From NCBI GenBank assembly GCA_963708025.1, contig CAVPSB010000031.1, positions 320,001-384,000 on the forward strand: DNA of 64,000 nt, written 5' to 3'. Within the stretch, counting starts at the first letter, position 1; every line of letters begins with the position of its first letter. Shown here piece by piece: positions 24,001 to 27,000 of this stretch. Position numbers: made by a program. This stretch comes from an uncultured Candidatus Rokubacteria bacterium. Lineage in GTDB: Bacteria; Methylomirabilota; Methylomirabilia; Rokubacteriales; DASRDR01.

Positions 24001-27000
24001 CTACCGGGCATCCTCGCCGGATGCCGACCCCTACGTCCGCGAGGGGGACGCCATCAAGGAGGGGCAGGTGCTCTGCATCATCGAAGCGATGAAGCTGATG
24101 AACGAGATCGAGTCCAAGGTCTCGGGTCGGGTCATCCGCGTCCTCGCCGAGAACGGGCAGCCCGTCGAGTATGGCCAGCCGCTGTTCCTGATCGAGCCCT
24201 GACGTCTCCGCCATGAGCGCTGGAGCGAGATAGCCCCGTGTTCTGCCGATCGTGCTGGAGCAACATCGCCGATGGCAGCTCGGAATGCCCTCGGTGCCAC
24301 GCCGACCCCGGGGCGGCCCCGGCTGCGGCGACCCCGGCCGCGGCGGCTCCGCCGCCGGCGGGCCGCGTCCCCGACGAGCCGTCCCCGAAGAGGAAGGGCG
24401 ACCGCCAGAACCGGCTCATCGCGCTGGTCGCCCTCCTCGTGCTCGTCCTGATCGCCGGCCCGCCGGCCGTGGAGTGGGCGATGCGCCGCTGGCGCGGCGA
24501 GCCGGCCGGAGGGGCCCCGGGCTCCTCCGAGCGCCCACCCCTCGAGACGACCGCGTCCACCTCGGATCCGACCCGGCCGTCGGCTGACGACGGCCCCGAC
24601 GCGGCGGCGCTGCGCGAGGCCTACGAGCTCTATCAGCAGGGGAAGGTGACCGAGGCCTGCGACCGGTACCGCGACGTCGCCAACCGGCTGGGGACCCAGT
24701 CGGTGCGGCGCAACCTCGCGTCTTGCCTGGCGCGGCTCGGCCGGGAGGCCCAGCAGGCCAATCTTTCCGAGCAGGCGGCCGACTACTATCGACGCGCTCT
24801 GGACGTTGCTCCGGACGACGGGAGCATCTGGGTTGCCCTCGCCCTCGCCCACGCGCAGGCGCGAGACCTCGGTCGAGCCCAGGGCGTCCTCGAACAGGCG
24901 GCGGCGCGCTTCCCCGACGACCCCGACATCCTCTATCTGCTGGCCGAGATGCAGGAGCGGCAGGGACGCTCGCGCGAGGCGGCCGAGACGCTCCGCCAGC
25001 TGCTGGCCCGGCGTCCCGGCCATGCCAAGGGTACCCAGCTGCTGGCCGCTATCGAGAAGGAGCAAAAGGTCGAGGGGTCCTACTGGAGCCAGGAGAGCCG
25101 GCACTTCGTGGTGCGGTACGAGGGCGCGGGCGGGATCGACCTCGGGCGCTCGGTCGTCGACTACCTCGAGGAGGCGTACGAGACCGTCGGCCGGGCACTC
25201 GGCTACTTCCCCGAGCACCGGGTCCAGGTCAGCATCTACAGCCAGGAGGTTCTGGGCGAGGTCAGTCGGGTCCCGGCCCATTTCGTTCGCGGCGTGTTCG
25301 AAGGGGACACCCGGAAGATCCGGCTGAACTTCGCGAAGTCCGTCGCCTACACGAACGACCTGTCCCAGCTGGTCCGCCACGAGTACACCCACGCCGTCAT
25401 CCACGAGGTGAGCAACGGCAAGGCGACGGTCTGGGTGCACGAAGGGCTGGCCCAGGTGATGGAGGGCCGCGCCCCCTGGCCCCTCCCCGCCAGCGTCCCG
25501 CGTCAATACCTGACGCTGGCCGGGATCGACCAGCTGGCCCGGGCCGGGAACGCGGTGGCCGCCATCTCCGGGTACGTGCTCGCCCACGTCGCCATGCAGC
25601 ACCTGGTGGACCAGGGCGGCATGCCGAAAGTCGCCGAGTTCCTGCGGCGCCTCGGGCAGGGCGACACCATCGAGCAGGCGCTCCGTCAGGCCTTCGGCTT
25701 CGGATCCGAGGACGTGGAAGCGCGGATCTTGGCCGTCGCCGGCCGGAGCTGAGAGCGTATGAAGGAATCGAGTCCTCCGACTCCCCCCTCCCCCCAGTGG
25801 GTGGGGGAGGGGGGCCAAAGGCCGAAGGCCGTCGAAGGATCGGGTGGGCGGGAGGTCCCGAACTGACGTGTTCGGCAAGATCCTCATTGCCAACCGCGGG
25901 GAGATCGCCCTCCGCATCCTCCGGACCTGCCGGGAGATGGGGATCCGCACGGTGGTGGCCCACTCCAAGGTGGACGCGGACTCGCTGCCGGTGCTGCTCG
26001 CCGACGAGAGCGTGTGCGTCGGCCCCGATGAGAGCGCCCAGAGCTACCTGAACATCCCGAGCCTCATCTCGGCGGCCGAGGTCACCGACGCCGAGGCGAT
26101 CCATCCCGGCTACGGCTTCCTCGCCGAGAACGCCACGTTCGCGGAGATCTGCCGGGCCTGCTCGATCCGCTTCATCGGGCCGGGTCCCGACGCCATCCGC
26201 CTCCTCGGCGACAAGGTGCGGGCCCGGGAGCTCGCCCGGAAGTGCGAGGTGCCGCTCCTCCCCGGCAGCGAGGGCGGGGTCCGGGACGAGGCCGAGGCCC
26301 TGGCGTGCGCCGAGGCGATCGGCTTCCCGGTCCTGCTCAAGGCCGCCCTCGGCGGCGGCGGGCGCGGCATGCGCGTCGTCCGCGATCGGGAGGGCCTGGC
26401 CGCCGCCGTCCAGACGTGCCAGAAGGAGGCATCCGCGGCCTTCGGCTCGTCGGAGATCTACATCGAGAAGTTCGTGGAGGTCGCCCGCCACGTCGAGGTC
26501 CAGGTGCTGGCCGACGCTCACGGGCACCTGATCCATCTGGGCGAGCGCGAGTGCTCGATCCAGCGCCGGCACCAGAAGCTCCTCGAGGAGTCGCCGTCGC
26601 CAGCCGTGACGGAGGCGATCCGCGGCGAGTTGACGGCGGCTGCCCTGCGCCTGTGCCGGGCGGCCGGGTACGAGAGCGCCGGGACCGTCGAGTTCATCCT
26701 GGACGGCACGGGCCGCTTCTATTTCCTGGAGGTCAACACCCGGATCCAGGTCGAGCACCCGGTGACCGAGATGGTGACCGGCGTCGATCTCGTCCGCGAG
26801 CAGATCCGGATCGCCGCCGGCGAGCCGATGAGCGTCACCCAGGAGACGCTCCGCTCTTCGGGGCACGCGATCGAGTGCCGGATCACCGCCGAAGACCCGG
26901 TGACCTTCACGCCCAGCCCCGGCCGGATCTCGACCTACCTGCCCCCGGGTGGGTTCGGGGTGCGGGTGGACAGCCACTGCTTCAGCGGCTACACGGTGCC

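Follow-up and report, generated by a model that had tools for sequence, protein, structure and literature searches.

The question raised by this locus is why a short GC-rich repeat, present at hundreds of loci in a Rokubacteriales genome, lies exactly between the TGA stop codon of one gene and the GTG start codon of the next, in the orientation of both. We examined the copy in a window of 64,000 nt, from whose first letter the coordinates below are counted, together with the rest of the genome and its relatives. The upstream gene (24238..25752, + strand, a home-made gene call from the ORF list) encodes a 504-aa TPR/peptidase-MA-like protein, in which Pfam TPR families were found while Peptidase_MA_2 stayed under its cut-off; the Atlas clusters nearest to it are TPR/peptidase MA proteins. 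The downstream gene (25868..27202, + strand), assigned by Pfam, is an accC-like biotin carboxylase gene whose product matches Biotin_carb_N (residues 1-110 on profile positions 1-110), CPSase_L_D2 and Biotin_carb_C. Since the Biotin_carb_N alignment begins at residue 1, and the N-terminus ([MVL] followed by 12 residues) is common to 19 relatives' loci, one of them with its first codon masked, we take GTG 25868 as the start of accC.

The repeat itself is a 118-nt variant at 25749..25866 (+ strand, as are all parts named here), both TGAs and the preceding C included. Its 5' TGA (25750..25752) doubles, by sequence and ORF list, as the upstream gene's stop codon and the left flanking direct repeat, and its 3' TGA (25864..25866) is the right flanking direct repeat, as seen in the sequence and by comparison with relatives. 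Between them the repeat body, delimited by BLAST and the nhmmer family, runs from GAGCG... to ...CCCGAAC (25753..25863). The body contains a CCTCC in the 5' arm (25774..25778), proposed from the sequence as a partner of GGAGG; a central hairpin (25783..25814) with 12 predicted base pairs in our folds, made up of a C6-T-C6 arm (25783-25795), a loop (25796-25802) and a G5-A-G6 arm (25803-25814); a nested small module (CCAAAGGCCGAAGGCCGTC..., 25815..25842); and a GGGAGG (25850..25855), a Shine-Dalgarno-like motif in the sequence 12 nt 5' of GTG 25868. According to the alignment of long copies, the nested module replaces the usual TTGGGGGGG stretch and is a repeat in its own right, as its core strings have 249 and 516 exact copies in the genome and it is found in relatives too. 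Translation also reveals an incidental 35-codon ORF spanning the element, from ATG 25759 to TGA 25866, and stopping 1 nt short of the start of accC.

Using nhmmer with a threshold of E<=1e-3, we found 536 matches (253 of them full length) in 447 loci of the 8.17-Mb genome, or 0.58% of its sequence, in line with the 476 hits in 448 loci of the initial annotation, and BLAST within the genome returned 693 HSPs. The repeats are non-coding, 94-158 nt long and about 75% G+C, with a consensus of 97 nt. A variable arm of some 30 nt at the 5' side is followed by a perfect 12-bp C-run/G-run hairpin and then by a G-rich 3' arm, which ends in GGGAGGTCCCGAA(C); in the 3' logo, conservation stops at CCCGAA. 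The third of the element that holds the hairpin is the best conserved (mean identity to the consensus 0.93), and copies show single-base length variation in homopolymer runs. We saw no convincing terminal inverted repeat in the family, the ends GAGCGTG... and ...CCCGAAC (or ...GATC) matching by eye at 4/7 to 5/10 positions. The multi-copy loci that we inspected (C25, C7 and C2 in this genome's contigs, and G003) are head-to-tail arrays. Neither the window copy (best E 0.13, 20.7 bits against a gathering threshold of 55) nor ten further loci (a lone chance match of 30.7 bits against a threshold of 77) matched an Rfam family, which agrees with the earlier search, and literature queries with the repeat motif strings returned nothing relevant.

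The predicted fold of the window copy has an energy of -60.7 kcal/mol, but its z-score is only -1.1 against dinucleotide shuffles, with -0.6 to -1.8 for seven further folds; the initial annotation gave folds of -55 to -57 kcal/mol and a z-score of -2.0. These weak z-scores indicate that fold stability is no greater than composition allows. The RNAalifold consensus of 137 canonical copies was a poor, mis-registered structure (-7.5 kcal/mol), owing to shifts in the C-runs and G-runs, and a fuzzy-pattern count of hairpin substitutions yielded just 9 clean cases, too few for a statement on covariation, since the hairpin arms hardly vary. The pairing of GGAGG with CCUCC, which had been proposed as an inference, is present in some folds only and gained no statistical support; in the predicted fold of the window copy, the CCTCC at 25774-25778 is paired with the nested module and not with GGAGG.

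The accC junction is empty in all 15 same-family relatives' loci that share the same upstream gene end, extending the 13 of 13 reported earlier, and the element is absent from this junction in all 18 readable relatives' loci. Empty relatives carry one ...GGAGCTGA, then 2-60 nt, and then the start codon. Three more junctions (C16:190193, C12:55510 and C11:45702) likewise hold the element here and lack it in relatives; conversely, two junctions that hold it in relatives (in the genomes G003 and G001) are empty here. These reciprocal patterns indicate that copies in different genera occupy different loci. At two further junctions in G001, the gene order differs in one case and there is no flank match in the other. 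By first-look candidates, the load is about 10-fold higher here (519-712) than in relatives (16-97). A comparison of genera gave 85-93% identity in the hairpin and 3' arm; for the accC DNA of the same genera the figure is 81-88%. A 17-mer scan of genome contigs, which omits the source genome itself and says nothing on distribution, gave 47 loci in unrelated GC-rich organisms, and we rejected these as chance matches because 0/47 match the family HMM. Parts of the stretch under study occur in 20 public runs (best share 0.51). Over 20 kb of contig C14 with six loci, the contigs of four runs (DNA or unknown kind) were short and ended before the repeats, and the listed joints, with 21-35 letters on the shorter side, do not lie at elements.

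The 5' TGA is the exact stop of the upstream gene in 135/262 copies, and a second internal TGA is used in 12 more; the initial annotation had 141/219, and our figure comes from independent gene calls. These 135 abutting stops comprise 130 TGA, 5 TAA and 0 TAG, even though TAG accounts for 28% of all called stops genome-wide. A stop is abutted by 57-79% of full-length copies, whereas the share of stop codons is 10% among non-coding TGAs and 26% among CTGAG sites. Filled sites have TGA on both sides, perfectly at three of the four compared junctions and with one base missing at the fourth, whereas empty sites have one TGA; the shared TGA is therefore best explained, as far as sequence comparison goes, as a duplicated target triplet. 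The element is shown to insert at a TGA triplet (TAA rarely, TAG never), with the triplet left on both sides. Genome-wide, the presence of a 5' TGA is associated with that of a 3' TGA (59/40 vs 10/36, odds ratio 5.3, p 3e-5), and antisense copies are flanked by TCA on both sides, which is TGA in the gene's direction. No more than about 30-45% of copies have an intact right-hand TGA, the 3' junction is often 1-2 bases off the expectation for a clean duplication, and TAA flanks covary in 1/6 cases plus one by eye, too few as a duplication test. From the pattern of the flanks alone, one cannot tell a putative duplication from an end borne by the element.

Among the 408 copies in co-directional gene pairs, 370 are sense to both neighbours and 38 are antisense, in agreement with the 311 of 349 co-oriented copies counted before. 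The sense/antisense ratios by GC-skew strand are 248/16 and 122/22; the bias tracks genes and not the GC-skew strand, so we rejected a replication-strand cause of the orientation. Sense copies outnumber antisense ones 96:16 in co-directional pairs vs 19:10 between convergent genes (p 0.03), and 65 convergent vs 24 divergent spacers hold a copy. We saw no common function among the flanking genes. Selection may be the cause of the sense bias, as suggested by two tests with small numbers and p values of 0.03-0.07. All these counts depend on home-made gene calls with a coding density of 80%; with these independent calls, the earlier counts were all recovered to within sampling error.

In 51/153 copies the first in-frame start codon is found between -2 and +6 nt from the end of the 3' CCCGAA, which places it 5-13 nt after GGAGG, a proportion close to the 101/289 given previously for starts within -3 to +5 nt. 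ATG or GTG codons at -2 to +6 after CCCGAA fall into the independently determined coding frame in 57 cases, vs 4 and 8 in the other frames. The 3' end of the 16S rRNA carries CCTCC, and GGAG peaks genome-wide at -10 to -12 from called starts, in view of which the 12-nt spacing of GGGAGG in the window copy is long and poor. At element-free co-directional junctions after a TGA stop, the spacer is <=2 nt in 1011/3537 (29%), and sense copies are found at tight junctions (28/96 and 51/153, 33%) as often as these are available, while only 1/16 antisense copies are (one-sided p 0.04). Because 29% of the element-free junctions are tight and 33% of copies have a near start, the start near the 3' end largely follows from insertion into tight gene junctions. 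Moreover, GGAGG is kept in 94/109 copies where it is usable as a ribosome-binding site and in 277/289 elsewhere; it is a fixed part of the element and not selected locus by locus. GGGAGG may nevertheless be used as a ribosome-binding site: in 5/5 of the inspected relatives' copies whose 3' arm is intact, an ATG, GTG or TTG is located within -1 to +2 nt.

Taken together, we consider that the repeat is probably a non-autonomous mobile element, MITE-like or MIRU-like, which targets and duplicates TGA, keeps the upstream stop, and provides a GGGAGG in place of the displaced ribosome-binding site. In this model, the element would integrate at a TGA, leaving the triplet duplicated on either side. 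TGAs that are stop codons would be the least harmful places for insertion, and surviving copies would for that reason be found directly behind stops. In the sense orientation the left TGA would remain the stop of the upstream gene, and where genes are tightly packed the element's GGGAGG would arrive 5-13 nt before the next start, where it could substitute for the ribosome-binding site pushed about 100 nt away. Sense insertions would then be tolerated in operons, and antisense copies at tight junctions would be lost.

We searched for an enzyme that could mobilise such an element. The 99.7% complete genome has 0 matches to Y1_Tnp/RAYT (PF01797), for which the control was positive in 6/14 genomes, and 0 each to the reverse transcriptase RVT_1, to TnpB-type (PF07282) and to DUF4096-type transposases, confirming the earlier statement on reverse transcriptase and RAYT. 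The five DDE_Tnp_1 genes were rejected as mobiliser, being unrelated and having no element-like ends. The linkage of copies to a transposase, also denied before, was dismissed again, as the distance from the 5 DDE and 6-7 IS110 genes to the closest copy is 0.6-37 kb (random median 6.6 kb), no shorter than from random positions. An autonomous partner was sought as a 5'-arm/3'-arm pair enclosing an ORF, and no such pair was found: 5'-only and 3'-only matches separated by 0-8 kb proved to be either long variants that had been split or independent copies lying between housekeeping genes, and long genomic repeats, including a 1.56-kb gene family, have unrelated ends. It is possible, but rather unlikely, that the family homes to stop codons with a mover of none of the transposase kinds searched, probably a host-encoded or family-wide enzyme reading TGA in the context of termination. 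The element would in that case be a portable hairpin, GGGAGG and spacer, whose last A together with the duplicated TG can rebuild an ATG, and more than 100 genes here, along with others in at least four further genera, would initiate from the donated site.

The same orientation and stop contact might be mechanical and not selected, if the element inserted in a strand-specific manner 3' of (C)TGA, in the style of IS200/IS605 or REP-RAYT or by a circle-junction recombinase, with no true duplication and with an end of its own carrying CTGA. Such a process would account for the asymmetric target, for the fact that sense and antisense subfamilies both read 'CTGA, element ending in (C)TGA' in the gene's direction, for the single CTGA common to tandem copies, and for the copies with a 5' GTGA or ATGA and a 3' CTGA (8 and 4, respectively), where the first base never matches; the antisense copies are also set apart as a subgroup by their 3' end (RATC ahead of TCA), and the residual 19:10 bias between convergent genes points the same way. 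We nonetheless judge it unlikely, given that Y1/HUH transposases (with the positive control) and TnpB were both at zero, that orientation is independent of the replication-skew strand, that sense copies predominate less strongly where no downstream gene would be affected, and that only a minority of copies have the 3' CTGA. We are similarly doubtful that the repeat is a selected RNA element of operons that spread by host benefit, whether by shielding the upstream message from 3'-exonucleases or by uncoupling the translation of adjacent genes, with a possible G-run quadruplex and independent initiation. Selection of this kind would fit the hairpin and 3' arm being at least as similar across genera as accC DNA, the position of all five inspected relatives' copies directly before a start codon, the hairpin being the best-kept part, and its onset about 30 nt past the stop, which would leave room for a terminating ribosome. 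It is harder to reconcile with copies that are non-orthologous between genera at the six compared junctions, with folds no stabler than shuffled sequence, near-invariant arms offering no countable covariation, a GGAGG equally kept in unused copies, flanking genes without a visible common function, and the roughly 10-fold higher load here than in relatives.

Coupling as in MIRU, by a translated short internal ORF that passes ribosomes downstream through a stop/start overlap, is suggested by the 35-codon ORF of the window copy with its end 1 nt before the accC GTG, by a GTG at position 11 of the 97-nt consensus in frame with the 3' TGA, and by 24/69 copies in which such an ORF is open. This is very unlikely, as the distribution over the three frames (28, 22 and 19 of 69) is no more than chance gives, core lengths modulo 3 are 45/48/52, homopolymer runs vary by single bases, and most copies miss the 3' TGA. 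Hardly credible is the idea that the hairpins are transcription terminators marking gene ends: a strong GC hairpin does follow soon after stop codons and convergent spacers do exceed divergent ones, but there is no U-tract, with only two T after the hairpin in the canonical form, a scan of 25500-26100 gives 0 terminator-like sites, and the 370 sense copies lie between co-directional genes, many without promoter room before the next start.

If our preferred reading of a TGA-targeting mobile element is true, it would represent a second route, besides the coupling ORF of MIRU, by which selfish DNA can live in operons, namely by keeping the stop and bringing a ribosome-binding site, and it would bear on the evolution of operon spacers and ribosome-binding sites in GC-rich bacteria. 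A strict TGA target without a known transposase would point to a mobilising activity that is not yet described, and the 3' arm could act as a natural compact intercistronic cassette. There is also a consequence for annotation, in that the downstream gene's longest ORF frequently begins within the element, here at GTG 25844 and not at 25868. Of the 39 'intragenic' matches, at least 9 are start-codon miscalls of this type, and nearly all others are at called-gene ends.

Several known systems resemble this family in part. The IS1031 group of the IS5 family makes 3-bp TNA duplications and has an end beginning with GAG, and the T-N-A type of 3-bp duplication and the GAG end are shared with our repeat; it differs in that this genome has no DUF4096-type transposase, and the ends of its 5 DDE_Tnp_1 genes are unrelated. 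REP elements, which have a role in mRNA stability, and BIMEs are likewise abundant extragenic GC-rich hairpins behind genes, often convergent or co-directional ones, but the genome here is without a Y1/RAYT gene, the unit, some 100 nt long, has asymmetric arms and a strong orientation bias, and the inspected arrays are head-to-tail and not inverted pairs. IS200/IS605-derived elements (PATE) go with a TnpA (Y1) and usually a TnpB gene in the genome, and insert without duplication 3' of a fixed tetranucleotide or pentanucleotide; they differ as well, with PF01797 and PF07282 both at 0 here.

Closer parallels are found among bacterial MITEs, of which Correia/NEMIS, RUP, ERIC and YPAL are described, in PMC2229807, as non-coding, hairpin-forming, less than 200 bp long, present in hundreds of copies and co-transcribed with their neighbours, with a target-site duplication and with filled vs empty sites between relatives. 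Our repeat is similarly small, non-coding and present in many copies, with a TGA...TGA (TCA...TCA when antisense) putative duplication and filled/empty sites. According to the same source, most of these elements are rich in A+T, have well-defined terminal inverted repeats and target TA, in contrast to about 75% G+C, no convincing terminal inverted repeats and a TGA target here; the repeat also has a 10:1 orientation bias and no matching insertion sequence was found in the genome. The nearest relatives in lifestyle may be the MIRUs (mycobacterial interspersed repetitive units), which PMC12548453 and PMC3184786 portray as short GC-rich repeats in operons that follow the orientation of the genes and lie where two genes meet; their filled sites show short direct repeats, relatives have empty ones, and insertion is thought to disturb the expression of neighbours little. 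Our repeat shares the intergenic position in operons, the sense orientation (370/408 copies), the flanking direct TGA (at 3/4 junctions, with one near miss) and the empty sites in relatives. By these accounts, MIRU have some 40-50 copies against about 450 loci here, and a flanking repeat that is a tetranucleotide instead of the 3-nt TGA, as compared by description. The ORF of MIRU, as portrayed there, overlaps the stop and start codons of its neighbours (-4 coupling), whereas the repeat described here keeps no frame and carries a Shine-Dalgarno motif instead.

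Searching the genome under study (8.17 Mb in 49 contigs, 71% G+C) with a hidden Markov model built from 17 long copies of family A, a ~96-nt non-coding hairpin repeat, we obtained 536 matches at E<=1e-3, 253 of them full length, in 447 loci, close to the 450 or so of the initial annotation, whose finding is real and whose description holds; BLAST gave 693 HSPs. At 47,117 bases, the family takes up 0.58% of the genome. Its usual length is 94-98 nt, while two longer forms, 117-118 nt and 155-158 nt, contain additional small repeats inside the hairpin loop or next to it; the 118-nt variant, which includes the window copy, is rarer, with 19 long BLAST matches. 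The median identity to the consensus among 137 canonical copies is 0.87 (hairpin 0.93, 3' arm 0.85, 5' arm 0.79), and 11 of these copies reach at least 0.95.

The window spans C31:320001-384000. Its family A copy (25749-25866, plus strand) follows a gene for a TPR/peptidase-MA-like protein of 504 aa (ORF list, Pfam and protein clusters), whose stop TGA lies at 25750-25752. A repeat body of 111 nt (25753-25863) is attached directly 3' of this TGA and is followed by a second TGA (25864-25866), one base, and the GTG at 25868 that starts the biotin carboxylase gene accC. This start is secure, since the Pfam profile Biotin_carb_N aligns from its position 1 with residue 1 of the protein, and the N-terminus is common to 19 relatives. 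The mechanically longest ORF (25844-27202), by comparison, begins at a GTG inside the element, and our own caller set the start inside or before a family A element in at least nine genes elsewhere; automatic annotation of this genome probably contains the same miscalls. Within the copy, a CCTCC-containing 5' arm is followed by a hairpin of 12 bp, in which a C6-T-C6 run pairs with a G5-A-G6 run, then by a nested module of 28 nt, also a repeat in its own right, and by a 3' arm terminating in GGGAGGTCCCGAAC. Its GGGAGG lies 12 nt from the GTG, beyond the genomic optimum (GGAG starting at -10 to -12), and a scan found no terminator-like or promoter-like site at this copy. Parts of 24800-26800 also occur in metagenome runs of soil, bog and sediment, drawn from over 10 studies (sampled-word share 0.2-0.5), which is no evidence of habitat.

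Orientation was assessed against home-made gene calls from a codon log-likelihood model (7254 genes, 80% coding density). Spacers between co-directional genes hold 370 matches in sense, that is, in the direction of the flanking genes, versus 38 in antisense, confirming the reported co-orientation; 65 matches lie in convergent and 24 in divergent spacers. Given totals of 5566 co-directional, 820 convergent and 819 divergent spacers, those with a stop codon are favoured. Orientation tracks the genes on either GC-skew strand (248 sense and 16 antisense on one, 122 and 22 on the other). Another 39 matches overlap a called gene, nearly all within ~80 nt of the called ends, and these can be put down to miscalled starts or to ORFs that extend into the element; some five matches, in four places, appear truly internal. 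At C13:43384-43527, two partial sense matches lie ~2 kb into a called 3.9-kb ORF, where either the element joins two genes in frame or its open frame led the caller to fuse two genes.

The claim that the 5' TGA serves as the upstream stop was borne out among the 262 copies whose 5' end is intact and whose upstream gene lies on the same strand: the stop coincides exactly with the first TGA of the element in 135, versus only 12 for the second in-element TGA. Because a random frame would give equal counts at the two, it is the first TGA that ends the gene. Of the stops in contact with an element, 130 are TGA, 5 are TAA and none is TAG, where all called stops of the genome number 4821 TGA, 2047 TAG and 363 TAA. 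No more than 10% of the non-coding TGAs and 26% of the CTGAG sites are stop codons, and contact with stops is therefore 2-6 times above availability. In antisense copies it is the 3' end that meets the stop of the gene on the opposite strand, at a constant 4 nt (16/24), and in convergent spacers a stop is touched by the 5' end in 19 copies and by the 3' end in 10.

Comparison with relatives' genomes shows what these junctions look like when empty. As first reported, the accC junction lacks the element in relatives: this was so in 15 of 15 same-family loci in which the end of the upstream gene is preserved (...GGAGCTGA, with 2-60 nt between it and the start codon), and none of 18 readable relatives' loci carried it. 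Here CTGA cc GTG (relative G014) corresponds to CTGA-body-CTGA c GTG in the genome under study. At C16:190193, an ATGA overlap (relative G006) corresponds to G TGA-body-TGA, the last A of the body and the following TG rebuilding ATG; at C12:55510, TGATG (four relatives) corresponds to CTGA-body-C GATG, where a clean duplication would have one more T; and at C11:45702, where the copy is antisense, TGA ATG (G006) corresponds to TGA-body-TGA gcc GTG in the gene's direction. Genome-wide, a 5' TGA is associated with a 3' TGA (59/40 vs 10/36, odds ratio 5.3, p 3e-5). Per-base conservation past CCCGAA, the 3' end of the conserved element, falls to 35-50%, and many 3' junctions are off by one or two bases. 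There are also two reverse cases. In relative G003, a tandem pair of copies with a TTG start behind it occupies the site that reads TAG c GTG in the genome under study, and in relative G001 a copy lies immediately ahead of the ATG of a gene that, from its N-terminus read by eye, looks like an ABC-transporter ATPase, the matching site being an unrelated 244-nt spacer after TAG. Both empty sites thus end in TAG. At these two junctions (C34:67811-67820 and C2:166213-166215 in the genome under study) the upstream gene ends in TAG here and in TGA in the relatives, which, in these two cases only, fits a TGA-only target. Since different junctions are filled in different genera, the copies are independent insertions.

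The 16S rRNA ends in ...GGATCACCTCCTTTCT, and the 3' GGGAGG of the element could serve as a ribosome-binding motif for the next gene. With the downstream frame set from codons +40 to +340 only, an ATG or GTG at -2 to +6 past CCCGAA was in frame 57 times and in the other frames 4 and 8 times. Among 153 copies followed by clear sense coding, 51 had their first possible in-frame start in this interval, matching the third of copies initially described, with peaks at -1 (14 copies, CCCGA-ATG) and +2. The fraction is equal to that of tight junctions among co-directional pairs that have a TGA stop and no element in between (1011 of 3537, 29%), and the proximity of starts is therefore what insertion at the stops of packed genes would yield; the real point is that insertions at tight junctions are not depleted. 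Selection for the motif at individual loci is opposed by its retention, GGAGG being present in 277 of 289 copies unable to use it versus 94 of 109 able. On the other side, only 1 of 16 antisense stop-abutting copies lies at a tight junction versus 28 of 96 sense ones (one-sided p 0.04, two-sided 0.07), and sense copies outnumber antisense ones 96:16 in operon-like pairs but 19:10 between convergent genes (p 0.03); both results, though small in number, fit a motif that is useful on the sense strand. As to folding, the central hairpin was predicted in 8 of 8 folds; pairing of GGAGG with CCUCC varies between the predicted folds of different copies, and stability beyond composition was not seen in these eight (z -0.6 to -1.8).

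Other repeats were noticed as well, some of them within family A. A small module at window positions 25815-25842, with the core GGCCGAAGGCCGTC, has 516 exact copies in the genome (249 for a longer 19-nt string); it is nested in the family A loop or adjoins the hairpin, and in relatives it is also solitary, at times within other inverted repeats. The 155-158-nt forms (locus L085 in the C25:477417 region, C18:184341, C14:466898 and others) carry in the loop a ~70-nt insert, itself a repeat with 85-90% identity in relatives G001 and G002; thus small elements are nested inside small elements. At C2:216040-216640, seven head-to-tail units of ~100 nt, each a truncated family A copy with the same 30-nt flank, form a minisatellite-like array reminiscent of MIRU-VNTR loci. 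A hairpin repeat with a G-run, a TCTTCCGAGA-like loop, a C-run and the same ...CCCGAAGATCTCA tail precedes antisense copies at C13:213330-213396, C2:285250-285309 and C14:416873-416940, and may represent a sister family with a common 3' end. Two adjoining short repeats at C12:54965-55074 (locus L082, 66-175), with dozens of matches at 76-81% identity in G001, G003 and G006, form another repeat found across the family, without relation to family A. A gene-sized repeat of ~1.56 kb occurs at C2:141254-142812 and at least eight other places (at least nine copies), and its product presumably has a motif as in HNH/DUF222-type proteins.

Hairpin plus 3' arm (positions 28-98) was matched in 9 of 20 same-family genomes, spanning five of the six other genera sampled, and in none of 100 genomes from other families of the order; the 118-nt variant was matched in 8 of 20 and 0 of 100. 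The 5' arm matched only in the genome under study, bar one 77% match. First-look candidates, which are not copy numbers, amount to 519-712 here versus 16-97 in relatives, suggesting an expansion, and all five relatives' copies read with an intact 3' arm had a start codon at -1 to +2 nt. As initially stated, no Rfam family, reverse transcriptase, RAYT or linked transposase goes with the family: Rfam gave no match, and Y1_Tnp, RVT_1, TnpB-type and DUF4096 had no matches each in the genome. The DDE_Tnp_1 genes (five) and IS110-type genes (six to seven) were rejected as mobilisers, having unrelated ends and lying no closer to copies than chance, and no long element with family A arms, as an autonomous partner would have, was found in this genome.

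On balance we favour family A as a non-autonomous, TGA-targeting mobile element, which would survive in sense orientation behind stops by preserving the upstream stop codon and by supplying a putative ribosome-binding site, GGGAGG. A literature search by motif strings or topic, with supplements outside its scope, found no description of such an element. The lack of a Y1 gene in this genome rules out REP/RAYT. The putative 3-bp TNA duplication and ends starting with GAG resemble those of the IS1031 group of IS5, and no IS1031/IS5-type transposase is present in this genome. Bacterial MITEs, as described in PMC2229807, are alike in size, copy number and target duplication (putative in family A), but differ in having clear terminal inverted repeats and a TA target; RUP, the best studied of them, also has a candidate partner insertion sequence. 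The nearest concept is the MIRU, depicted in a 2025 review (PMC12548453) and in Delihas 2011 (PMC3184786) as mobile, sense-oriented within operons and flanked by short direct repeats; the same sources give it an ORF coupled to its neighbour at -4, whereas family A, tested for such an ORF, does not keep one and has a Shine-Dalgarno motif in its place.
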